Shown in pieces: positions 2,833 to 36,787 of a stretch of DNA of 36,787 nt (the first letter of the stretch is position 1; every line of letters starts with the position of its first letter). The notes beneath the pieces are model-generated. The model saw only the letters and a list, made by a program, of their open reading frames with translations, was not told the origin of the DNA and searched no databases. This stretch comes from a virus (Duplodnaviria > Caudoviricetes). Position numbers and translations under genes: made by a program. The stretch is from positions 1 through 36,787 of the IMG/VR virus record IMGVR_UViG_3300010366_000008, one strand, 5' to 3'.

Positions 2833-3365
2833 ACTTCCTCCTCCCTCTCTTCCGTGCGCTCCTGGGCCTCGCCTGCTTCAATGGGCGGCAATTGATCGGG
2901 CCGCGAGATCCCGAGCATCACCTGATCGAGCAGCACGCCGTTTTTCAGGTACGACGCTTCGTTGACTCCGAAGACTTTCATGCCGGCCCGGTAGGCGAAA
3001 TGCAGCGCCAGCCGGTTCGACGCCGGCACGTTGGTCACGATTCGCCGGCAGTGCGAGGCGTACCACATCCACATCGGCAGCAATCGCGCCGCGAGCTGCC
3101 CGCGCTCGCCCCAGGCGCACGGCAACAGCGCCGTATGCACTTCCCAGCAGACGCCGTTCTGCGGGACGAACATCCACAAACCCAATAAATCCGCGCCTTT
3201 CTCGTGGACGTCGCGCACGATCACGTACCAGATCGAGGGATGTTCCTGCGGGTAAAAGTCGCCGGGCGCCGGCGAGTAGTCGTCGGAGAGATATTTCCAG
3301 AGCCGGGGATGCGTAAGGATGCTGCGGATCAGCTCGTAATCGAAGGAACGCTCGAAAGCGATCAC
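2802..3365 (-). CDS. GNAT-fold protein (DUF2824 / P22 gp14-like)
   Basis: Probable GTG start at 3365 overlapping the upstream stop (GTGA); WEVHTALLPCAWG, IVTNVPASNRLA and GMKVFG segments; position before the ejection genes. Confidence 0.7.
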   Translation of the reverse strand: MIAFERSFDYELIRSILTHPRLWKYLSDDYSPAPGDFYPQEHPSIWYVIVRDVHEKGADLLGLWMFVPQNGVCWEVHTALLPCAWGERGQLAARLLPMWMWYASHCRRIVTNVPASNRLALHFAYRAGMKVFGVNEASYLKNGVLLDQVMLGISRPDQLPPIEAGEAQERTEEREEEVCQPQSLHRS

Positions 3366-4696
3366 GGGGAAATCCAGGTTGCGGAGATCGAGGTGCCGGA
3401 AGCATAGATAACGCTGGCGCCGGTTCCGCCCGTTTTCCACGCCTGTAGTTGCACGGTGTTCCCTACGGCTGCGGTGAACAGCCATTGCTGCGTGACGGTT
3501 CCGCCGGCCCCGGGCGCCCCGGTAAGAATCGCCTGCCGGGTGCCCCCGGCGCCGTTCTGTAGCAGGTTCCCGCTCAGGTACGCTCCCGAGTCCCCGGTCC
3601 CGCTCAAATAGAAATAGAACACGCCGCGGATCAGCCACTGGCCCGCGCGGGAAAGGGTGAGCAGTGTGCCGGAAACCGGTTGCCCGGATGTCGTCAAGGT
3701 GATGTCGGCGGAAGCGGAGCCCAAAAGCACGATGCCCGTCTGTGAGGGCGTGGTTTCGATCCATGCGGAACCGCTCCAGACAAAAGAACGCGCCGGCGAG
3801 TCGGTGGTGCGGAAAGTGAACCCGGCGTCGTTGGCCCCCAGATCCGTAGGTCTCTGGTCCGGCGTGAGCGTTCCCCACATGCTGCCCGCGAGAAAATGCC
3901 ACGCGTTCGCCTGCTGCTGGTAGATCACGCCGCTGCGATCAGTCTCCACGTAGATCGTCCGCGGAGGGGTCTGCGCGTTGGCCGCGGGACGGTTGGCGTG
4001 CAGACCGTACTCCACCAGAGTGGTCTCGATCCAGACGGTTCCGCTCCAGATGAATGTTCGCGGCGCATAGGTGTCGCTCGCGTCGGTGGACCGGTACTCA
4101 AACCCGGCATCGTTCGCGCCCAGATCCGTGGGCCGCTGGTCCGGCGTGAGTGTTCCCCACATGCTGCCCGCGAGAAAATGCCAGGCATTCGCCTGCTGCT
4201 GATAGATCACTTCGGTGCGGTCGGTTTCGACGTACAGCGTGCGCGGCGGGGTCAGGGCATCCGCCGGCGGGCGGTTGGCGTGAGTCCCGTACAGAACGAG
4301 AGTCGTTTCGACCCAGACCGAACCGCTCCAGACGAAGGTACGCGGCGCATAGGTATCGCTTGAATCAATCGAGCGGTACTCAAACCCGGCATCGTTCGCG
4401 CCCAAGTCGGTGGGCCTCTGATCGGGTGACAAAGGGCCCCACATGGTGCCGGCGAGATAATGCCAGGCGCCGCCCTCGTTGACGTAGATCACGCTCTGAT
4501 CGCTGTCCACGTAGATCGCGCCATCCGGCATGTCGCCGGCGTTGGGGCGATTTGCGCTCGTCCCCTCGGTCACCAGCGCATTGAGCTTGTCGCCGGTCTG
4601 GCCCCAGTAGTAATACCACTCCTTCGCCGTCGTATTGCCCCCCGAAGGATCGAGCAGGGTGGTGCGGATGGGCGGAATCTGCGGCAGATCGTTCAT
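3362..4696 (-). CDS. Tail fibre / receptor-binding protein with three 94-aa repeats and a C-terminal beta-sandwich
   Basis: ATG at 4696 overlaps the upstream stop (ATGA); repeats GxxANRP...WHxLAGxMWGxLxPDQRPTDLGANDAGF...FVWSGxxWxETT; C-terminus resembles a C1q/BclA-C jelly roll. Confidence 0.75.
   Translation of the reverse strand: MNDLPQIPPIRTTLLDPSGGNTTAKEWYYYWGQTGDKLNALVTEGTSANRPNAGDMPDGAIYVDSDQSVIYVNEGGAWHYLAGTMWGPLSPDQRPTDLGANDAGFEYRSIDSSDTYAPRTFVWSGSVWVETTLVLYGTHANRPPADALTPPRTLYVETDRTEVIYQQQANAWHFLAGSMWGTLTPDQRPTDLGANDAGFEYRSTDASDTYAPRTFIWSGTVWIETTLVEYGLHANRPAANAQTPPRTIYVETDRSGVIYQQQANAWHFLAGSMWGTLTPDQRPTDLGANDAGFTFRTTDSPARSFVWSGSAWIETTPSQTGIVLLGSASADITLTTSGQPVSGTLLTLSRAGQWLIRGVFYFYLSGTGDSGAYLSGNLLQNGAGGTRQAILTGAPGAGGTVTQQWLFTAAVGNTVQLQAWKTGGTGASVIYASGTSISATWISP
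3750..4570. repeat. Three tandem ~282-bp coding repeats
   Basis: The equivalent ccca anchor occurs at 3837, 4119 and 4401, a period of exactly 282 bp; boundaries approximate. Confidence 0.9.
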
Positions 4697-6375
4697 GCGA
4701 ATCCCGGCGTGCTCTCGAGGTAGGTGTCGATCAGGGCGACTTTGCTTTTGGCGGTGATGCCCACCCGGTAGACGCGATCGCGCGATTTGCCCAGCCGGCG
4801 GAAGACCGCCCGCTGCGTATAGTTTCCGCTGGGCGCGGCGTTGGTGAAGCGTCCGATGCTGTCGTTGAACGTATGCCCGTGATCGTCGCTCCAGTCGAGC
4901 CCGATCGCGGGCGCTGTCGTGCTCGAGCTTTGCGCGCCCTGCTCCAAAAGAACCTCGAGCCGGTGATCGTAGTGCCACTGGTTCTCGTTGATCAGATGCG
5001 GAAAAGCCCGCGTGTACTGGATCAGAGCGCCGTTGTCGTCGTAATAGTTCAGGCTCTGCTGATAGAGCGTCCCGCTCACCGGGTCGCCCACGATATGGGT
5101 TCCGTTGGCGCCCCATTCGGGAATGAACGTCCCATACCACGGCAGGTATTTGGTATACGCGCTGGTCGAAGCGTTCCAGCCGGCGCGCTCGTGCCAGAGC
5201 CCCTCGGTCAGGTCATAGACCCAGGTGCGGCCGTTGTTCCAGAAGTTCACCACCCAGAAAATATGCCCGTTCTCGGCGTATCCGTAGCTCACCGCGTCCC
5301 ACACCCGGTATCCGGCCTGGTTCCACTCCTGCTCCTGCGCATGAGTCGAGATGCGCTGCGGCTGCAGGCCCTGCACCCGGTAGGCGATGGTCTGGCCGGA
5401 GTTGCCGCCGCCCAGATAGCAGACGCTCAGCCCGACCGAGCAGGGCGCCCAGCGGGCCACGCTGCCGTCGTGGATCATGGCGCCGGCGACCCGTTGAAAC
5501 GGAAACGGCGAAGCCCCGACGTCGCTCCAGACCTCGATCGAGTCGGTGCCGAACAGCCAGAGTTCCTCGTGGTCAGTGAGAATCGAGTTGATGTTATCGG
5601 GAGCGCCTTCTTTGATGCCGTAATCGAGCGGGTTCCAGCGGGTGCCGTCCATCAGCGCGGAGATGTTGAACTGCCGTCCGGAAATGCCGGTTCCGCTATT
5701 GGCCACCCGGTTCACGATGAAGTACCCGTCCAGCACGGCGCCGGTAATGCCGTCCACCTGCGCCCCCTGCGCCGCCTCCCAGACCACGTTGGTCTGCGCG
5801 GGCAGGTTGCGGTCGAGGATGATGGTGTGGTCGTTAGGGACGCCGGTCATCACGTAACTGACGTCGTCGATGAGAATGTTGCTCCCCTGCCAGGCCGGCA
5901 GGAACGGTCCCGGCGTGACTGAATTGACCAGCGTTCCTCCGGGGCTGCCCGAGAACGTGTTGCCGGTCCCGGTGATCGCAAAATTCGCCGGGACGGGTCC
6001 CGAGCCGTTGTCGCAATAGACCAGGCCGCCGGACACGATCATGAGCTGGTTGCCGTTAGAAAAGATCTGCGCCGGATCGGGATCGGAGGTGCCCTGCGCA
6101 ACCGTCTTAGCCGAAAGCGTGGTGGTGCCGTCGGAATGTACTTCGGTGTAATTCGGCCCGTGGATCACGAAGCAGCGCCCGCCGCCCGACCAGATGCAGC
6201 GGATCTTGAACGGGGTCAGCGCCGCGAAGTACTGCAGGCCCGGCCGGCCATAGAGCACCAGGCGCGCCGGCTCGTTGGGCACTTCGACGGCTTCAGGGAT
6301 CAGGTTCATGGTCTGCTGCGCCGCGGCGACCACCGACAGCGAGGTGTAGGAAGGACCGGCCAGAGAGATTTTCAC
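4693..6375 (-). CDS. Tail hub/nozzle, packaged-DNA stabilisation protein (P22 gp10-like)
   Basis: Probable GTG start at 6375; LDGYFI, EGAPDNI, LWLFGTDSIEVW, TWVYD...LWHER, WSDDHGHTF and FRRLG motifs. Confidence 0.85.
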   Translation of the reverse strand: MKISLAGPSYTSLSVVAAAQQTMNLIPEAVEVPNEPARLVLYGRPGLQYFAALTPFKIRCIWSGGGRCFVIHGPNYTEVHSDGTTTLSAKTVAQGTSDPDPAQIFSNGNQLMIVSGGLVYCDNGSGPVPANFAITGTGNTFSGSPGGTLVNSVTPGPFLPAWQGSNILIDDVSYVMTGVPNDHTIILDRNLPAQTNVVWEAAQGAQVDGITGAVLDGYFIVNRVANSGTGISGRQFNISALMDGTRWNPLDYGIKEGAPDNINSILTDHEELWLFGTDSIEVWSDVGASPFPFQRVAGAMIHDGSVARWAPCSVGLSVCYLGGGNSGQTIAYRVQGLQPQRISTHAQEQEWNQAGYRVWDAVSYGYAENGHIFWVVNFWNNGRTWVYDLTEGLWHERAGWNASTSAYTKYLPWYGTFIPEWGANGTHIVGDPVSGTLYQQSLNYYDDNGALIQYTRAFPHLINENQWHYDHRLEVLLEQGAQSSSTTAPAIGLDWSDDHGHTFNDSIGRFTNAAPSGNYTQRAVFRRLGKSRDRVYRVGITAKSKVALIDTYLESTPGFA

Positions 6376-6398: not shown

Positions 6399-7292
6399 AT
6401 GAGCCTAGAAACCGTACCCACCCTGGCCGGCGTCGAGGCCCTGATTCTCCAAACCAATGCAATGGACAACGAAGAGGACCGCATCCGGGTTCTCTGCGAC
6501 CACGTTTATTCGGCGGAAGATCTCACCATTCCGCCGGCCGATCCCTTTTCCGCCGAATACCGCTCCTTCGTGCTGGGCGTCTGGCGCACGCTTACCGGAC
6601 GTGCCGAATACTGCGCTGGAGAATGCGAGCTGTCGCCGTTTCTGACTGATTTCGACAACGTCTTCCGGCTGCCGCCTTACAGCTACGGTTCCACCGACAT
6701 GCTGGGCGAGTTTCTGATCACCTACGGCTTCATCATCAAGACGATGGGATTGAAAAGCGGTGCGCGAGTGCTCGAGTACGGCGCCGGCAATGCCCAGATC
6801 CTGCTGCACCTGGCGCGCATCGGCTGCGACGTGACCGCCATAGATCTCGAGCCGCGCTACATTGCCCAGATCCGCGAACAGGCCCGTCGCATGGGCGTCG
6901 GGGCGACCGGGATTGTCGGCACTTTCGACCAGGATCCCGAGGGTGGTCCTTACGATGCGGTGTTGTTTTTCGAATCCTTCCACCATGCGCTCGATCATGC
7001 GGCTTTGATTGAGCGGCTTTCCCGCCATCTGAAAGATTCCGGCATCCTGGTCTTCGCCGGCGAGCCGATCATTCCGGCCGGCGGTTACTGGCGCCCCACC
7101 ATCCCTTATCCATGGGGACCGCGCTTCGATCTGCTCTCGCTGCGCTCGAGCAAAGCCTACGGATGGCTCGAACTGGGGTTTCAGGAGGAATATTTCACGG
7201 GGATGCTGGAGCGCTACGGATGGACGGTTACCAAATATCCCTGCCCGCTGACCTCGCGAGCCGATACTTGGATTGCGCGGCGTCATCCTTGA
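6399..7292 (+). CDS. Class I SAM-dependent methyltransferase (moron, opposite strand)
   Basis: VLEYGAGNA motif I, VTAIDLE motif II, YDAVLFFESFHH, LKDSGILVF. Confidence 0.9.
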   Translation: MSLETVPTLAGVEALILQTNAMDNEEDRIRVLCDHVYSAEDLTIPPADPFSAEYRSFVLGVWRTLTGRAEYCAGECELSPFLTDFDNVFRLPPYSYGSTDMLGEFLITYGFIIKTMGLKSGARVLEYGAGNAQILLHLARIGCDVTAIDLEPRYIAQIREQARRMGVGATGIVGTFDQDPEGGPYDAVLFFESFHHALDHAALIERLSRHLKDSGILVFAGEPIIPAGGYWRPTIPYPWGPRFDLLSLRSSKAYGWLELGFQEEYFTGMLERYGWTVTKYPCPLTSRADTWIARRHP

Positions 7293-8113
7293 GGTCCCCA
7301 GGTCGTGGTAAACCACGGATCGTTGCTGCCGGTCGGACCGCCGCGGCCGATGCACGGCACATCCAGGACCGGCTTGGGCGCATTGATCGATTCGATGCGC
7401 AGGAGCGCTTTCTGCGCGTCGTTGCGCACGTCGGCGTCTACCTGACGCTGGAAGTGCGGACCCAGGCGCACGGCGAGATTCAGCACCAGAGCGTCTTCGT
7501 AGCCGGGCGGCACGAGCACCACGTCATCGGACGTCAGGAAGGTTGAGACCACCTGCCAGATGTACAACTCGAGGATGTAGCCGGGAACCGGCTGCGGGTA
7601 AATGTAGAGCGTCGAGAGCGGGTAGTCATAATCGTCGTACAGCGCGTAAGGAATGGTGTTGGCGATGTCCTGCACCACGATGCGCGACCACTGGAGGTCG
7701 GTCAGGAGCGCCAGCGGCCGCCGGATCTGGGGCATCGAGTAGATGATGTTGGCCCGGTCGATCTGGACCGGCCGCGGACCGTTCAGGTCGGCGACCGTCT
7801 GCCCCGTGGGATCGATGCCGATGGTAAAGATTTTGGCGCCGGTCAAAGCATATTCGTAGCGCGCCATCGAAAAGATGAACAGCCGGTCGCAGGTCAACGA
7901 GCCGATCAGGCGGTTGAGTTCCTCGAGCCCGTCCTGATACTGGGCGGGCGAAGGCGTGCGCTGCGGGCCGAGCGTTACCCCGGCTTTGCGCAGAGCCGGA
8001 TAGATCAGGCCCTTGCCGGCGGCTACCGGGACCGTGCCGGCGCCGATGCCGCCGAAGACGTTCTGATTAAAAAGAATCTGGTCCCAGAGTGGATTCGATG
8101 CAGTCGCGCCCAT
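7283..8113 (-). CDS. Head-tail adaptor paralog 2 (P22 gp4-like)
   Basis: ALRKAGV...DGLEELNRLI N-terminus and PPGYEDALVLNLAVRL C-terminal motif. Confidence 0.7.
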   Translation of the reverse strand: MGATASNPLWDQILFNQNVFGGIGAGTVPVAAGKGLIYPALRKAGVTLGPQRTPSPAQYQDGLEELNRLIGSLTCDRLFIFSMARYEYALTGAKIFTIGIDPTGQTVADLNGPRPVQIDRANIIYSMPQIRRPLALLTDLQWSRIVVQDIANTIPYALYDDYDYPLSTLYIYPQPVPGYILELYIWQVVSTFLTSDDVVLVPPGYEDALVLNLAVRLGPHFQRQVDADVRNDAQKALLRIESINAPKPVLDVPCIGRGGPTGSNDPWFTTTWGPQG

Positions 8114-18066: not shown

Positions 18067-18489
18067 TCATTTCCTGTCGCGCGTCACGCGCACGTTGGTA
18101 AAGCCTTCGCCCTGTAGTCCCGGTATCTGGCGGCGCACGTCGGCGTGGATGCGCGAAACCTCCGTGGCGCTGACCGGGCGGGAGCGCCCCTGCTGCGCCT
18201 TCAGGCACGTATCCAGCGGGGTATCCATGACGATCACGGCGGTCTGCGCTCCGTGCCTGCGGGCGATCGAGAGCGCCGCCTTGCGGACCGCGGGGTTCGC
18301 TCCGGTGGTGTCGAACACCACGTCGCGGCCGGCGGCCAAGTGCTGGTTGAGCTGCCGGTACGAATCGTGGAGTATGTCTCCCGGCGCCTGTTTGGTTCTG
18401 CGGTCATTGGTGACGACCGTGCCGAGACGCGCAGCGTAGGTGCTTTTGCCCGATCCGGGCGCACCGATCAGAACCGTCAGCCGCGGCAT
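18067..18489 (-). CDS. P-loop kinase (AAA_33 / polynucleotide-kinase-like)
   Basis: Walker A GAPGSGKST, VVFDTTG, lid motif TPLDTC...R. Confidence 0.85.
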   Translation of the reverse strand: MPRLTVLIGAPGSGKSTYAARLGTVVTNDRRTKQAPGDILHDSYRQLNQHLAAGRDVVFDTTGANPAVRKAALSIARRHGAQTAVIVMDTPLDTCLKAQQGRSRPVSATEVSRIHADVRRQIPGLQGEGFTNVRVTRDRK

Positions 18490-19167: not shown

Positions 19168-20667
19168 TCATCCCATCCATGAACCGGGCATCTCTCCTAC
19201 GAAGCGCCACTCCGGCTGTTGCTTCGGCGCCACCGGCGGCACCTGCGCCGCAAACGTGAGCGCGAGCGCGTCGCCGCGGTCCGGGCTGGCCACGCCGCGC
19301 TTCTGCATGGCGTCTTTGCTCTCGAGCACGAGCTGGTCGCTGCGGTTCAGGTGCGATCCGGGCGCCGCCAGATCGGTTTCGAGCACGATGTCGTCCGCGG
19401 GTATGGCTCCCCGGGTGAGCCACTCCTTCATGCGGTTCCACATGAAGGCGCGCATATTGGCCTGGTGTCGATCGGGAGACGGGCCGCCAAAGTTGACCTC
19501 CACCACGTTGTCGAAACCCATCCCCTTGAGGCGCTCGACATACGGCGCGCCGAAAGCACTGTCGACGAACAGCATCGAAACCTGCCGGCCAGGCCGGCGG
19601 TCGTTGAGGACTTCCGCGAGGCGCGCGAGTACGCCCGAGCGTTCCTGCGAGTGCTCGCCCGGAATCGCGATCGGCGGGATCGAACGGGCGTCGCTGCCGC
19701 GGCGGAACCAGACGACGTTCCACGCTTGCCCACCTCCGGAAACGTCCATTCCCGCGACTAACGCATCATCAGCGAAAGTTGCCACAGTGCGCTTTTTCGC
19801 GGCGTCGATACGGTCCTGGTCGATGAACTGGAGATCGCCGGCCCGCGGGGCAATGCCCCGGACGCGGACGCGGACGTAATCGCTGTCCTCACCGTAGTCA
19901 GCGATCCACTCGGCGATCAGATCCTTGTTGGTGAAGCGCGATTCGCGCGAATCGATGCAGCGCACGTTCCAGCGGTCGCGCAGCTTGCCGAAGCAGATCT
20001 CGTAAAAGCGCCCGCTCTTGCGCGCCGGCTGCCCCCAGGCGAAGAACATGGGCTCGCCGTCAGTGAGACCGCCCTGGGCCACGTCCCAGATCTCGTCGGG
20101 GATATGGCTGGCTTCGTCGAACATGTACCACGAGGTCGACGTGCGCGCGTGCTGGCCGGCGAACGACTGCGCGTTTTCGGCCTTGCAGGTCTGGGCGACA
20201 ATCTTCCAACCCGCGGGATCCTGTTTCGAGTAGATGCCGTTGCTGCGGATGTGGAACCAGTGGCCGGTGACGCACAGGCGTGTCCAGCGCTGGATCGCGG
20301 CCCACGTGCGGCTTTCGAGCTGCGGGTACGTGTTGGCGGTGACGGTGCCGATCGAGTACGGCCTGGTCGAGAGAATCCAGTCAGCGATCCAGGCGCCGAG
20401 CGTCGATTTGCCGGTGCCGTGACCGCTCGAAGCCGCCATCAGCACCGGCATCACGGGATCCGTGCCGTTGAAGCGCCGCTGGCGGACTTCGTTGCCGAGA
20501 TCGATTAGGAAGCGCTCCTGATTGGCGTCGGGGCCGTCCTCGTTCTCGAGTTCGGTTCCTTTCTTCCGCCAGGGATAGGCGAAATGAACGAAGCGGAGCG
20601 GGTCGTCGATGAAGCCGACCATTTCGTCAGCGAGCAGGAAATCAGGAGCCGGTGCGGGCGAGATCAT
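19168..20667 (-). CDS. terL: Terminase large subunit
   Basis: Walker A SGHGTGKST, Walker B YMFDEA, nuclease AGMDVSGGG and SPDRGDALALTFA. Confidence 0.95.
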   Translation of the reverse strand: MISPAPAPDFLLADEMVGFIDDPLRFVHFAYPWRKKGTELENEDGPDANQERFLIDLGNEVRQRRFNGTDPVMPVLMAASSGHGTGKSTLGAWIADWILSTRPYSIGTVTANTYPQLESRTWAAIQRWTRLCVTGHWFHIRSNGIYSKQDPAGWKIVAQTCKAENAQSFAGQHARTSTSWYMFDEASHIPDEIWDVAQGGLTDGEPMFFAWGQPARKSGRFYEICFGKLRDRWNVRCIDSRESRFTNKDLIAEWIADYGEDSDYVRVRVRGIAPRAGDLQFIDQDRIDAAKKRTVATFADDALVAGMDVSGGGQAWNVVWFRRGSDARSIPPIAIPGEHSQERSGVLARLAEVLNDRRPGRQVSMLFVDSAFGAPYVERLKGMGFDNVVEVNFGGPSPDRHQANMRAFMWNRMKEWLTRGAIPADDIVLETDLAAPGSHLNRSDQLVLESKDAMQKRGVASPDRGDALALTFAAQVPPVAPKQQPEWRFVGEMPGSWMG

Positions 20668-21738: not shown

Positions 21739-21767
21739 TTGACAGGGATTCCTATGAAGAATAGGAT
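21739..21767 (+). promoter_or_regulatory. Sigma70-like early promoter with overlapping inverted repeat
   Basis: TTGACA-N17-TAGGAT; TCCTAT-gaaga-ATAGGA dyad over the spacer and -10. Confidence 0.65.
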
Positions 21768-23420: not shown

Positions 23421-23917
23421 AAGACCTGGCGCCGTTGTGGAAGATCAGTGAAGATCTGGATGCGCTGGTGAACAGCGCCGAGACCTGTCCGCCCGAACTC
23501 GAGGCGGAGCTCGAGGCGCGCATCGCCAGTTACCTGAAGGATGAGGTGGCGAAAGTCGACCGGGTCGGCGAAGTGTTCGCGTCGCTCGACGACATGGCGG
23601 AGAATGCCCGCCGCGAGATCGGCCGGCTGCGCGCCCGCGAACAGTCGGCCGAGCGGACGAAGGAGCAGTTAGCCAAGTATGTGTTGAGCGTACTGCGCGA
23701 ACGGGACGGCCGGCCGCTCAAGGGCCACAACGTGACCTTCAGCGTGCGCCACTCGGAGGCGCTGATCGTGGACGATCCCGAGCGCGTGCCCTTCGAGTGG
23801 AAGCGGCAGACGGTCTCGGTCGACATTCCGAAAGATCCGTTGAAACGGGCGTTGAAGGCCGGCAGTAATATTCCGGGCGTGCATCTCGAGCAGCGCGAGA
23901 ATTTACAGAGGAAGTAA
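23417..23917 (+). CDS. Siphovirus Gp157-family protein
   Basis: Coiled coil (EIGRLRARE), IPKDPLKRALKAGSNIPGVHLE C-terminus; adjacent to bet. Confidence 0.85.
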   Translation: MKDLAPLWKISEDLDALVNSAETCPPELEAELEARIASYLKDEVAKVDRVGEVFASLDDMAENARREIGRLRAREQSAERTKEQLAKYVLSVLRERDGRPLKGHNVTFSVRHSEALIVDDPERVPFEWKRQTVSVDIPKDPLKRALKAGSNIPGVHLEQRENLQRK

Positions 23918-24087
23918 TGAGCGAGGATCCCGACCGGGCCGAGTGCCCGTCGTGCGGCTCACGGAATACCGACCCGATCCAGTGGTTTGGGCCAACTGGT
24001 GTGACCAGTCCGGACGGTGTCGAGGAGTGGCGGACGCAATACGGGATCGGGTGTCACGACTGCGGCCGCATCGAGGAAATCTCATGA
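23917..24087 (+). CDS. 56-aa zinc-ribbon protein
   Basis: MSEDPDRAECPSCGS...GCHDCGRIEEIS; TAATG and ATGA overlaps with both neighbours; not in ORF track. Confidence 0.65.
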   Translation: MSEDPDRAECPSCGSRNTDPIQWFGPTGVTSPDGVEEWRTQYGIGCHDCGRIEEIS

Positions 24088-24749
24088 GAAACGTTCGAGT
24101 GGAACTAATCGGCAAAATGCCGTTACTGATGCACGCAGACAATATCGAGTGGGCAGATCAAATGGAAGAGTGGAAAAATAATCCAGCCAATAAAGCTAAA
24201 TCGAAAGCCGGCGATGATCGCACGCCGCCCTGGCGATGGATTGGATGCTTGAACTTCGACGAACCGAACACCGGAGTCGTTACGATTCCCTCCGAATACA
24301 TCATGAGTTGCATCCGGCGGGCTGCTGCTGAGGTTCCCACTGGACAAGGAAAGAAGACATTCAAAGAGCGGAGCCAGAGCGGGATTATCGCTCCTGACTT
24401 TCACTGGTGCTTCCAGAATGACGCCAAGCCCATTCCCATGAGGGAGATTCAAAAAATGCGCGCTCTTACCACGTTTAAGGAACACGCGGAAGCCGCTGAA
24501 GACCTCGGCTTCACATTGTTCGTGAAGCGGGCGAAGATCGGAACCTCGAAACATATTCGAGTGCGTCCCCGCTTCGATCAGTGGAGTGCATCGGGCGAGC
24601 TGATCATTATTGATGACGGAATCAACAACCGGGTACTGGGCGATATCTTCAAGATCGCCGGCAGTTTGAAGGGCCTGGGTGATTGGCGTCCCAGCGCTCC
24701 TCAGAGTCCCGGACCGTTCGGGACGTTCGAGGCCAAGATTTTTTCGTAG
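24084..24749 (+). CDS. Stand-alone RAMP/Cas7-like RNA-binding protein (221 aa)
   Basis: GAGG RBS and ATG at 24084; VRVELIGKMPLLMH first strand, VTIPSEYIMSCIRRAA (like RAMP IPxSxxKGxxR), RVRPRFDQW, C-terminal Gly-rich loop AGSLKGLGDWRP...GPFGTF. Confidence 0.75.
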   Translation: MRNVRVELIGKMPLLMHADNIEWADQMEEWKNNPANKAKSKAGDDRTPPWRWIGCLNFDEPNTGVVTIPSEYIMSCIRRAAAEVPTGQGKKTFKERSQSGIIAPDFHWCFQNDAKPIPMREIQKMRALTTFKEHAEAAEDLGFTLFVKRAKIGTSKHIRVRPRFDQWSASGELIIIDDGINNRVLGDIFKIAGSLKGLGDWRPSAPQSPGPFGTFEAKIFS

Positions 24750-24755
24750 ATTTCC

Positions 24756-24843
24756 GGCCTGGCACGCCTCGGCAAGGCCCGGCGCGGTACGGCATGGCGT
24801 GGCCGGGCGCGGCCCGGCAAGGCGAGGGCGCCAATGGCGCAGG
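24756..24843 (+). ncRNA. Putative guide RNA 1: 14 GGY-NN pentamers plus conserved hairpin tail
   Basis: Perfect 5-nt phase over 24756-24825 (12 GGC, 1 GGT, 1 GCC); NN = CT AC TC AA CC GC AC AT GT CG GC CC AA GA; followed by GGGCGCCAATGGCGCAGG. The repeat is seen directly; RNA status is inferred. Confidence 0.75.
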
Positions 24844-24855
24844 AGGTTCCATCCA

Positions 24856-25350
24856 ATGGGTAAGACATTTCGTGGTGGCGTCCCTTATGCCGTGGACGTA
24901 AGGCGTCTCACGGAAGCATTTCCGGGTCCTTCATTGACCGAGGGGCGCACGATTACGCATGCGCAACTGGAAGAGATCGTGAGCGCAAGCAGGGCTAGTC
25001 AGCGATATTACGGCGTGATCCATTCCTGGATGGCGCGCATGAAAAACGCCAATGGGATTTTCATCATCTGGCAACGATCCGTGGGCCTGAAAGTTTTGTC
25101 TCCGGCTGAGATTTTAGGTTTTGCCGGCACGAAAACCCGACAGAAAATCGGCCAGTTGGGCAAGGCAGTGAGGATTTATGGGCACGTTGACCGCAAGAGA
25201 TTAGACACGACAGGGCAGCAGCGTTTTGATCACGAAACACACGTACTATCGGTTTTAGAGGACGCCGCGAGGGCAGCCAAAAAGGAGATGCCGATCAATC
25301 TCGCCCCGATTCGCTCCTTGCCGAAACCCGCGATCATGCGCGAGGCATAG
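24856..25350 (+). CDS. Unknown 164-aa accessory protein between the two arrays
   Basis: AGGAGG RBS at 24841-24846 and ATG at 24856; basic protein, possible winged-helix N-half and helical C-half. Confidence 0.75.
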   Translation: MGKTFRGGVPYAVDVRRLTEAFPGPSLTEGRTITHAQLEEIVSASRASQRYYGVIHSWMARMKNANGIFIIWQRSVGLKVLSPAEILGFAGTKTRQKIGQLGKAVRIYGHVDRKRLDTTGQQRFDHETHVLSVLEDAARAAKKEMPINLAPIRSLPKPAIMREA

Positions 25351-25366
25351 TATGAGCAAAAGATTA

Positions 25367-25439
25367 GGCGCGGCAAGGCACGGCTGGGCCGGGCTCGGCC
25401 AGGCAGGGCCTGGCGAGGCGAGGGCGCCAATGGCGCAGG
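25367..25439 (+). ncRNA. Putative guide RNA 2: 11 GGC-NN pentamers plus the same hairpin tail
   Basis: Perfect 5-nt phase over 25367-25421; NN = GC AA AC TG CG TC CA AG CT GA GA; 25416-25439 is identical to 24820-24843. Confidence 0.75.
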
Positions 25440-25440
25440 T

Positions 25441-25596
25441 ATGAGGCTCTTTATGCTCGGCTGGGCGATTCTCCTGACCTTGGCGGCGCTGGCGGGCATC
25501 GGGATTTGTTCCGTCCGCCGGCAGATACGCTTACGCAGGGAACGGCGGGCGCTCCTGCATATCACCGGAGTGACTCCGTGGTGGGGGCAACGATGA
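25441..25596 (+). CDS. 51-aa single-pass membrane peptide
   Basis: MRLFMLGWAILLTLAALAGIGICSVRRQIRLRRERR...; ATGA overlap with the next gene; not in ORF track. Confidence 0.55.
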   Translation: MRLFMLGWAILLTLAALAGIGICSVRRQIRLRRERRALLHITGVTPWWGQR

Positions 25597-25775
25597 CACA
25601 AACGAAACCTTGGCTGGATGCGATCGACGATACCACCAAGTGGCTGTCGCTGGCAGTCGCGAGCCCGAAACCCGCGACCTCGCTGGACTGTCTGTACAAG
25701 GCGATGGTCGCCATTACGCGCGCAGTCCGTGACCTGGAAGAGGAAAGAGAAGCCCATGAGCGACAACGCCTTTGA
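25593..25775 (+). CDS. Hypothetical 60-aa protein
   Basis: ATG at 25593 (MTQTKPWLDAI...), coupled to the upstream stop. Confidence 0.55.
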   Translation: MTQTKPWLDAIDDTTKWLSLAVASPKPATSLDCLYKAMVAITRAVRDLEEEREAHERQRL

Positions 25776-25986
25776 GAAACATTACCTGATCAGCGAGCTG
25801 GCCAAGCTCTGGAACATCTCGGTCGAAACCGTGCGGCGGGCCGTACTGGCGGAACCGGACGTGATGAAGTTGACCGGCCCGAGCGGCAAGACCAGCTATC
25901 GCATTCCGGAATCGGTGGCGCGCCGCATCCATACCAAGCTGGTCGCACCGCGCCAGAGGCACCCGGAGCTGCTCCGGAAATCATGA
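25756..25986 (+). CDS. xis: Excisionase-like HTH protein
   Basis: HYLISELAKLWNISVETVRR...YRIPESV; convergent with the integrase. Confidence 0.7.
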   Translation: MSDNAFEKHYLISELAKLWNISVETVRRAVLAEPDVMKLTGPSGKTSYRIPESVARRIHTKLVAPRQRHPELLRKS

Positions 25987-25988
25987 AT

Positions 25989-27215
25989 TCACTTCACCTG
26001 AATCAGCGGGGTTTTGATACGCGCGAAGGCGGCGCGCAACACGTTCGTCAGCCGCTCCTGGCGCTCCGGAACCCATTTCGAGTACGACTGCCGCACGACT
26101 TCCTCGGTGTCGCCCAGCAGGGCGGCAATGTCCGCCACAGAAGTCCCATTCTGGAGCAAAATTCGGACCAACGTATGCCGAAAACGATGATGGCTCGGCT
26201 TTTCCTCGAATGGTGGACACAGGTCCCACAGTTTATCGAGGCGTTTGCGCCAGGTATTACCAAGTACGCAGGGATCTTCAGTAGACCGCGCGCCGAAGAT
26301 GTATGGCCCCCACTTTTTTTCGCGCCGGCGGATGATGTCCTCGAGCCATTCGGGCACCCAAGTATCGACCCATTTGCCGTTTTTGATGGCGCGGAAATGG
26401 ACCTTTCCTTCCCCGGTCATGCGCGAAATGTGGAAGGTCGCCATGTCGGAGATGCGCAATCCCGTGTAAGCGGAGATCAGGATAAAATCCGCAATATCTT
26501 CACCAAAAAATTTCTGCGGCGTGTTCGGCGTGTGGGGATAGCGGGCGCAGGCGGTCACCATACGGGTCAGTTCGTCATCGGTGTACGGAGATTTCGGTTT
26601 GGGCTGTGCAGCTTCGAGCTGTTTGCGATTGCGGGCGCGCTTGGTTTTCTCTACCGGATTGCCAGCGATGAAGTTTTTGTGTTCCTCAAAGAAGTTGCGC
26701 ACAATGCCGAAATTCTTCGCGTGGTAGCGCAGCGAGCCTTCCCACAACAAGCGGAATTCCTTGATGTCGTCGGCGGTCCACTCATCCACGTAGAGGTAGC
26801 CTTTGCGATCCGTAGAAAACGTCTGGAGTTTCTTAAGCACGCAGCGGTAGCGGCGAATCGTGGCCACCGAGGATTCGTTGGCCTGAGTTTCGGCAAGAGT
26901 CCGATCCACTGCCTCGGCGATCGTCCGGCGCGGTTTCCCCGTGGGCGAAAGTGGGGACACAGGCGGCGGCTCCGGCGGCGCATCGACTCCGTAGCGTTCC
27001 CAGTTCTCAGCGACCGATCGGGCTTCCGCCCAGTGGACGCGCTTCGTGTTGCGGCGGAATTTGGGGTTATCGCCCAGCTTGCCGGAGGCATAGATGGGGC
27101 AACCGCATTTTTTCGATTTGGGGCGCAGCTCGTCGCCCTCGTAGGTTTGGGAATCGCGCTTGTGCCCGGCGGGGCAGCGCGGGGGGCCGAAATGGCGGCG
27201 GTACAGATTCAGCAT
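25989..27215 (-). CDS. int: Tyrosine recombinase / phage integrase
   Basis: YTGLRISD, KNG, HHRFRHT, LLGD and SYSKW catalytic motifs; Cys/His-containing N-terminal arm domain. Confidence 0.93.
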   Translation of the reverse strand: MLNLYRRHFGPPRCPAGHKRDSQTYEGDELRPKSKKCGCPIYASGKLGDNPKFRRNTKRVHWAEARSVAENWERYGVDAPPEPPPVSPLSPTGKPRRTIAEAVDRTLAETQANESSVATIRRYRCVLKKLQTFSTDRKGYLYVDEWTADDIKEFRLLWEGSLRYHAKNFGIVRNFFEEHKNFIAGNPVEKTKRARNRKQLEAAQPKPKSPYTDDELTRMVTACARYPHTPNTPQKFFGEDIADFILISAYTGLRISDMATFHISRMTGEGKVHFRAIKNGKWVDTWVPEWLEDIIRRREKKWGPYIFGARSTEDPCVLGNTWRKRLDKLWDLCPPFEEKPSHHRFRHTLVRILLQNGTSVADIAALLGDTEEVVRQSYSKWVPERQERLTNVLRAAFARIKTPLIQVK

Positions 27216-32560: not shown

Positions 32561-32705
32561 GCGTAAGAACGCTGCGGCCGTTGCGCTTGGCCGGCGCGGC
32601 GGGAAGAAAAAAGTGCCGAAAGGCTTTTCGTCACTCAGCCCGGAGCAACGCCGGAAGATGGGACAAGCCGCCGCCGCGGCCAGGTGGGGGAAGAAGGGGA
32701 AATGA
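32553..32705 (+). CDS. 50-aa basic nucleic-acid-binding peptide (AVALGRRGG...ARW family)
   Basis: MAKRKNAAAVALGRRGGKKKVPKGFSSLSPEQRRKMGQAAAAARWGKKGK; GGAGG RBS; not in ORF track. Confidence 0.75.
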   Translation: MAKRKNAAAVALGRRGGKKKVPKGFSSLSPEQRRKMGQAAAAARWGKKGK

Positions 32706-33139
32706 AGACGTTATACGACACCGACTTCCACGCCTGGGCGCTCGACCAGGCGCAGCGGCTGAGGGCCGGCGAGAAGATCGACGCGGAGAATGTAGCGGAG
32801 GAACTAGAGACTTTGGGGAAAAGCCAGCAACGGGAACTGGAAAGCCGTATCGCGCAAATCATCGAGCATCTGCTGAAACTGCACTTCCTGCCGGATTACT
32901 TGCGGGAACCCAATGAACGGGGCTGGAAGGTTTCCGTCATCAAACAGCGGGCCGCGATCCAGCAATTACTGGAACAAAGCCCCAGTCTCCAGCGGATGCT
33001 CACTGAGGAAGTTTTAGCCGAGTCCTACCAAGACGGCCTGGAGTCGTTCCGCATCACTGATTACGAAATGCTGGGGAGTGCTCCTGCGCAATGCCCGTTT
33101 ACGTGGGAGGAAATCTTGGAAGGAAAAAAGGGGAAATGA
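32702..33139 (+). CDS. DUF29 family protein
   Basis: LYDTDFHAWA..QA..LR, EELETLGKSQ, IIEHLLKL, SPSL, CPFTWEEIL. Confidence 0.9.
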   Translation: MKTLYDTDFHAWALDQAQRLRAGEKIDAENVAEELETLGKSQQRELESRIAQIIEHLLKLHFLPDYLREPNERGWKVSVIKQRAAIQQLLEQSPSLQRMLTEEVLAESYQDGLESFRITDYEMLGSAPAQCPFTWEEILEGKKGK

Positions 33140-36612: not shown

Positions 36613-36787
36613 TTACTTTCTGGTGAATCCCTGTGTCTGGGCTTGCGGCCATTTATCGGCATCCATCCAGTAATCCTTACCTTCCGGCGACGTGACCATA
36701 ATCTTGCCGGTAGGAGCGAGTTTGAACGGGCCGGTCACGCGCGGCCCGGCGGTGCCGGTTTTTTCGATGGTCTGGACTGGCGGTTTC
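36613..36787 (-). CDS. 3' end of the origin-spanning ejection gene that starts at 1862
   Basis: ...GKDYWMDADKWPQAQTQGFTRK* with TAA at 36613-36615, 3 nt before the next ATG. Confidence 0.8.
   Translation of the reverse strand, partial: KPPVQTIEKTGTAGPRVTGPFKLAPTGKIMVTSPEGKDYWMDADKWPQAQTQGFTRK
36665..36787. repeat. Terminal direct repeat, copy 2
   Basis: Identical to 1-123. Confidence 0.97.

Follow-up and report, generated by a model that had tools for sequence, protein, structure and literature searches.

A GGY-NN repeat tract beside a vipr gene in a P22-like phage contig: a probable guide RNA of a divergent VIPR locus

VIPR Systems and the Locus in the Window

VIPR, a small CRISPR-related programmable DNA silencer, was described in 2026 in a study that also established its code, in which a GGY scaffold alternates with NN words that pair with the target and one target base is skipped (bioRxiv 10.64898/2026.04.26.720920). 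Most VIPRs are found in phages and proviruses, and their targets are other mobile elements; an NN match of 80% was the bar set for natural targets (bioRxiv 10.64898/2026.04.26.720920). Type II VIPR is known from a Pseudomonas fulva prophage and from Escherichia phage SUSP1 (bioRxiv 10.64898/2026.04.26.720920; 10.64898/2026.04.26.720927; PDB 36pp). In SUSP1, assembly of the filament begins at the tail side, and the K82 clamp is essential (10.64898/2026.04.26.720927).

The window, that is, the whole stretch of 36,787 nucleotides analyzed here, contains a cassette with the following features:

24079..25453, plus strand: whole VIPR cassette, missing from the closest relative found
24084..24749, plus strand: vipr, 221 amino acids, a stand-alone RAMP, overlapping at its start with the stop of the zinc-ribbon gene upstream
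24756..24825, plus strand: Array 1, the repeat tract of vrRNA 1, with 14 GGY-NN units, of which unit 3 is GCC
24826..24841, plus strand: vrRNA 1 3' tail, GG followed by a 5-bp hairpin (stem 24828-24832 with 24836-24840, 3-nt loop; predicted fold)
24856..25350, plus strand: vap, 164 amino acids, a distant vap1 relative with an N-terminal half predicted to be winged-helix-like
25367..25421, plus strand: Array 2, the repeat tract of vrRNA 2, with 11 GGC-NN units
25422..25437, plus strand: vrRNA 2 3' tail hairpin, identical to the vrRNA 1 tail

Array 1 is proposed to be the repeat tract of a VIPR guide RNA (vrRNA) situated between vipr and a vap1-like gene, the NN words of which likely guide Vipr in silencing a gene carried by a competitor, be it a phage or a mobile element; the probability of this reading is put at about 0.92. 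The locus resembles the type II VIPR of SUSP1 in being a two-gene phage locus of vipr and vap, in vrRNAs that comprise 9-16 GGY-NN units and end in a structured 3' tail that does not vary, in the retention of the GGY-contact residues, in the assignment of vap to the vap1 PHROG, and in the absence of a self-target. Unlike SUSP1, it has one guide between vipr and vap and one after vap, a tail that is a single 5-bp hairpin rather than a pseudoknot, clamp positions at which K82 and K88 are not kept, and a phage host that is probably a member of the Acidobacteriota. The class 1 CRISPR backbone (Csm3/Cas7) shares with it the RAMP fold, the thumb, the G-rich loop, and a predicted filament on the guide RNA. 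In contrast to class 1 CRISPR, the guide would be read in two-base words instead of contiguously, and no cas operon, CRISPR array, or nuclease accompanies it: neither Cas families nor nucleases were detected among the 39 ORFs scanned, and a tandem-repeat scan revealed no repeat-spacer array. No Rfam match was obtained at 23900-26000, and a single sigma-70-like site, at 21739, is no better than chance.

The vipr Gene Product

In PDB searches, SUSP1 Vipr (36pp) was the best match of the vipr product, with an E value of 4.5e-8 for the single sequence and 5.1e-15 for the profile, and the only significant one, the next best having an E value of 0.12; no Pfam match was found. Both proteins belong to PHROG 4652, and their hhalign alignment has a probability of 99.1, although the window protein differs from SUSP1 Vipr in extra segments and in an identity of only 28% over the 187 aligned columns. 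The predicted AlphaFold structure (pLDDT 90) has Csm RAMP subunits as its top Foldseek matches, with E values of about 2e-5. The gene product is thus Vipr, a RAMP with a thumb and a G-loop outside a CRISPR context, and 1611 homologs were found for its clade.

Residues H17, E71, G87, R138, D177, W178, and R179 of SUSP1 Vipr align with H17, E71, G87, R161, D200, W201, and R202 of the window protein. All are identical, including the full set of six GGY-recognition residues (H17, E71, R138, D177, W178, and R179 in SUSP1), and each is kept in 114-117 of the 117 aligned sequences, a set made up of the query plus 116 of the 120 listed homologs. The clamp residues K82 and K88 of SUSP1 align with A82 and Q88, a lysine being present at position 88 in 104 of the 117 sequences, while K33 and R39 align with N32 and A38 in a bundle region that is poorly aligned. 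The protein also deviates at three of 59 near-invariant family columns (positions 78, 80, and 114). The departures from the family at M78, G80, K88, and G114 (window 24315-24425) are located near the helix-1 tip, which clamps the non-target strand in SUSP1.

Judged from sequence, the lost clamp lysines and the column departures may be features of the clade or signs of early decay. A real VIPR locus in decay, in which the guide has drifted or the protein no longer binds DNA, would be consistent with Q88 and the three departures near the helix-1 clamp, with the GCC unit in the scaffold, and with the search results described below, in which no good target was found and a half match to a terminase gene fits a drifted guide. 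However, both reading frames are intact, all GGY contacts are kept, and neither tail has a defect. Related arrays often contain degenerate units, which also figure in the published methods, and targets were found for just 20 of 41 SUSP1-clade guides (bioRxiv 10.64898/2026.04.26.720920). Decay is therefore considered unlikely.

Repeat Tracts and Hairpin Tails

The initial annotation described Array 1 as 14 in-phase pentamers with a near-constant trinucleotide and 10 NN values, and re-reading of 24756-24825 matches this exactly. Positions 1-3 are GGC in 12 pentamers, GGT in one, and GCC in one, giving GGY in 13 of 14, whereas positions 4-5 take 10 distinct dinucleotides over the 14 units. The run score is 11 (units 4-14), whereas 200 third-order Markov simulations of the entire window, both strands included, reached no more than 5; the only further GGY-NN run in the whole window is Array 2. 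With 14 and 11 units, both arrays fall inside the published vrRNA range of 9-16 and adjoin vipr. The last unit and the hairpin tail form a 23-nt string that is identical in both arrays (24821-24843 and 25417-25439). The suggestion that the NN positions hold selected information is supported by the published VIPR code, which consists of the same NN words read with a fixed gap, and by the neighboring gene, which encodes Vipr.

Tandem Repeats Finder calls the Array 1 tract at periods 10 and 25, and an open frame crosses it, as could be expected of an ordinary slippage microsatellite or of a coding-frame by-product, such as the 223-aa frame that runs from GTG 24679 into vap. Yet the GGY is fixed while the NN takes 10 values, 40 of the 44 loci fetched (some of them duplicated) have arrays tied to vipr, the tail covaries, most aligned vap homologs start at about ATG 24856, and a period of 5 is out of frame. 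The vipr association and the agreement with the published architecture already refute this explanation, the likelihood of which is negligible.

Covariation of the tail hairpin was observed in 10 cells changed on both sides, a value reached in 0 of 500 shuffles, for a set of 22 hand-picked tails in an ungapped alignment that mixes loop lengths and in which 72% of the cells are paired. Of 59 distinct tails at related loci that begin with GGG, 54 form such a hairpin, compared with a null mean of 6. The unit next to the tail is also constrained: in 69 of 98 arrays it reads AA, GA, or AT. Across the arrays, the last and penultimate NN are skewed to purine-first words (AA, GA, AT, and AG), which suggests a partly structural role of the units close to the tail in this Vipr clade. 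Because the last one or two units are biased and thus less informative, 24-26 nt is a better figure than the earlier estimate of up to 28 nt of information. Similarly, the remark that a period of 5 does not fit codons is correct for the RNA and does not extend to the decoded target, which has a period of 3 and is codon-compatible.

The GGAGG ribosome-binding site of vap (24842-24846) lies directly 3' of the vrRNA 1 hairpin, and Array 2 ends 4 nt upstream of the next start codon. This arrangement would suit a tract that acts mainly in cis, as an mRNA leader bound by Vipr to control vap translation, with DNA targeting being secondary. Such a leader would have no need for hypervariable NN words, many related arrays are clustered without a gene behind each, and the SUSP1 RNAs are discrete guides (bioRxiv 10.64898/2026.04.26.720920), so that a leader function as the main role is highly improbable and the guide RNA reading is retained.

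The vap Gene and Related Loci

The vap product matches PHROG 5926, the family of SUSP1 vap1, with an E value of 5e-4, and all four vap homologs tested match the same family (E 1e-4 to 0.04). The hhalign comparison with SUSP1 vap1 is weak (probability 10), and BLAST against SUSP1 vap1 gave no match. A homology search returned 25 matches, including vap itself. The predicted structure is helical, and its Foldseek matches, all sub-threshold, are to winged-helix regulators. The vap homology points to a putative type II-like VIPR.

GGY-NN arrays are present beside vipr and on its strand in all 15 viral loci and at 25 of 29 metagenome loci when the window's own record is left out; several of the latter are duplicates, and the four without arrays are the most distant. 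The comparison of NN strings among relatives proposed in the initial annotation showed them to be hypervariable, the longest NN run common to Array 1 and any of 120 distinct related arrays being three consecutive units.

The loci of the closest Vipr relatives fetched (70-72% identical; L161:898-1559 and L180:372-1033) carry five arrays of 19-29 units with the same tail as the window, lengths that exceed the published 9-16 units, and arrays of up to 29-35 units occur in relatives L181 and L183. A phage with a related terminase (record G729; L310:7654-8620) encodes a distant Vipr (PHROG 4652, E 4e-14), followed by a small ORF with an HNH-like motif, recognized by eye, and a single GGY-NN array with a hairpin tail. 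This VIPR locus differs from that of the window and resembles nuclease-bearing types; no target of its guide was found in the window. A profile search for Vipr in 26 kin records or genomes was negative, a weak result given that the same search missed the distant Vipr of G729.

Phage, Host, and Mobility of the Cassette

The window encodes an integrase, a P22-like portal, coat and scaffold proteins, RecT, gp157, and terminase subunits. Because its ends form a 123-nt terminal direct repeat (1-123 and 36665-36787), the contig is probably the complete circular genome of a P22-like temperate phage. Accessory genes include a DUF29 gene (32684-33139, plus strand) and a small AAA_33-type P-loop gene (18067-18489, minus strand). 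A 282-nt tandem repeat (2.3 copies, 81% match) is located at 3819-4468 in the structural/tail region, and an ORF at 3362-5140 (minus strand), in another frame over the head-closure gene, has a 28-residue Pfam Ntox46 match that is probably spurious.

The host is probably a member of the Acidobacteriota. One Vipr homolog is labeled Acidobacteriota, the integrase has a 43% match in one of 401 Acidobacteriota genomes, and terminase homologs of at most 72% identity occur in 10 of 301 genomes of the family to which the integrase-matching genome belongs. This assignment is not certain because one terminase homolog is labeled Chloroflexota. The term "Acidobacteri" is absent from the main text of the four VIPR papers (10.64898/2026.04.26.720920, 10.64898/2026.04.26.720927, 10.64898/2026.10.15.759431, and 10.64898/2026.10.21.760802), the supplementary tables of which may well include such loci.

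In the closest relative found (L306, record G700), the terminase is 93% identical and the nucleotide identity over the two longest blocks is 96-98%, and the blastn homology ends at 24078 and restarts at 25454. A contig from another soil run (X3) joins 24078 to 25579 via 132 other letters. GC3 is 0.62 in vipr and vap, compared with 0.83-0.84 in the flanking and structural genes recT, gp157, terL, and portal and 0.72 in the integrase gene. Since the closest relative lacks the cassette and the codon usage of the cassette is foreign, its recent gain by the window phage is the simplest inference, with loss in the relative as the alternative.

Proposed Action of the Guide RNAs

By analogy with SUSP1, transcription of the early operon would extend over the tract, which would then be freed as an RNA of about 90 nt. 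Each GGY-NN unit may be bound by a single Vipr, giving a coat or filament on the guide RNA. In the SUSP1 scheme, each NN could pair with two target bases while every third base, usually the codon wobble position, is skipped, so that about 40 bp of double-stranded DNA would be covered. Such binding may block transcription without cutting, and Vap could strengthen the block. The one-base-skip rule in this clade is assumed on the same analogy.

Target Searches

The initial annotation found no convincing self-target by eye, and none is present: with skips of 0-3 on both strands, the best site outside the array scores 19/28, which was equaled by 63 of 300 shuffles at a skip of 1. A 19/28 site inside vipr was rejected as chance, given the shuffles. 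The gapped NN search of phage, prophage, and host DNA against shuffles, which had been proposed at the same time, gave nothing above background in the searches made. Only this outcome combined with NN words that are invariant among diverged relatives had been taken to speak against selected information; as the NN words of relatives vary, that claim stands.

The scans of sequence collections were exact one-skip matches, with held-out units and local skip controls. In viral contigs, neither guide had a match over 18 bases, and 14 bases of guide 1 gave about 260 loci, the best of the 120 listed reaching 23/28. Scans of the same contigs with 16 guide bases yielded 6, 14, and 26 loci, in which the held-out units failed (best 20 and 23/28, and 18/22). 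In most of 26 loci, what guide 2 matches is a conserved phage motif of an unrelated kind, and the flanks fail. In GTDB genomes, 18 bases gave 22 matches, two of them at 24/28; these two, in a transporter gene and in an accD start/intergenic region, were rejected as ordinary cellular DNA matched at chance rate. A third Acidobacteriota match is in a sugar kinase gene. Sites of 23-24/28 exceed the 80% bar yet occur at chance rate in unrelated DNA. No match to 22 bases was found in metagenomes.

Among 301 genomes of a likely host family, guide 1 had 18 matches with up to three mismatches versus 10 for a reversed control (best 23/28), and guide 2 had one match with up to two mismatches versus one for the control. 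Guide 2 had no match in 45 kin records, and when 83 guides were tested for cross-targeting on vipr-bearing loci totaling 485 kb, skip-1 matches were not in excess. The partial peptide likeness of guide 2 to ORF 6405-7355, which has no homolog in the 45 kin records, was not significant (15 of 40 shuffles).

The favored view is that the target is an element missing from the sampled collections. A host gene is a rather improbable target, and anything other than an unsampled element, a kin terminase gene, or a host gene is very unlikely.

A Candidate Target in the Terminase Gene of Kin Phages

One candidate site merits separate treatment:

19738..19779, plus strand: the candidate target site as it occurs in the window's own terminase large subunit gene (19168-20667, minus strand), matching 18/28 guide bases

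A less likely possibility is that guide 1 targets the codons for the nuclease motif in the large terminase subunit of kin phages and that the window's own copy escapes by a change of serine codon family and an F-to-M change. Among the 120 listed viral matches to units 1-7, 17 are homologs of the window terminase, all at one site and with the skip on the wobble base. In L255, which was chosen by protein similarity, the site matches 21/28 with 15 bases in a row. Runs of 15 were obtained in 1 of 150 shuffles over 325 kb of terminase loci and in 3 of 300 over 619 kb of kin DNA, and a run of 14 was reached by 0 of 73 other guides. Units 13-14 fit the F/L and S residues of the family. At the own site, the serine codon is of the TCN family, and a methionine occupies the position that is phenylalanine in 35 of 49 motif-bearing homologs.

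Against this reading, units 8-11 misfit the conserved D-D-P-L codons; they belong to the tail-side half, from which assembly of the filament starts in SUSP1. The maximum obtainable from any of 214 terminase proteins is 22/28, below the 80% bar, and the total score of 21 is marginal, as 5 of 150 and 20 of 300 shuffles reach it; the shuffle p of the half-match is about 0.01-0.07. Moreover, the terminase was picked after the match had been seen, and the kin set includes records selected by match. In an independent set of 12 prophage terminase loci of likely hosts, the best site is 17/28, no better than shuffles, and the site in the closest relative (G700) is 18/28 only. The match of guide 2 to an unrelated phage motif indicates that such matches arise easily, and base composition is biased in the last two units. 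If one bulge is allowed, guide 1 fits the L255 site with a score of 23 (reached by 1 of 60 shuffles); this fit changes the codon register and is post hoc, and it was not relied on.

A scenario in which the freshly acquired cassette arms the phage against VIPR-less kin by clamping their terminase nuclease codons via the 5' half of the guide, with the own copy escaping, is regarded as doubtful.

Implications

The locus is a well-supported further example of VIPR, and, the system itself being known, its added value is modest unless the terminase lead holds. If that lead is true, about seven tail-distal units would suffice for VIPR recognition, or guides would drift from the tail end, and the case would offer a first handle on VIPR mismatch tolerance and guide origin. 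The pair of phages with and without the cassette indicates that the entire system moves as a 1.4-kb module. The window adds a compact two-guide locus with a simple hairpin tail, drawn from a large uncharacterized Vipr clade, and each such divergent member widens the toolkit of programmable silencers.
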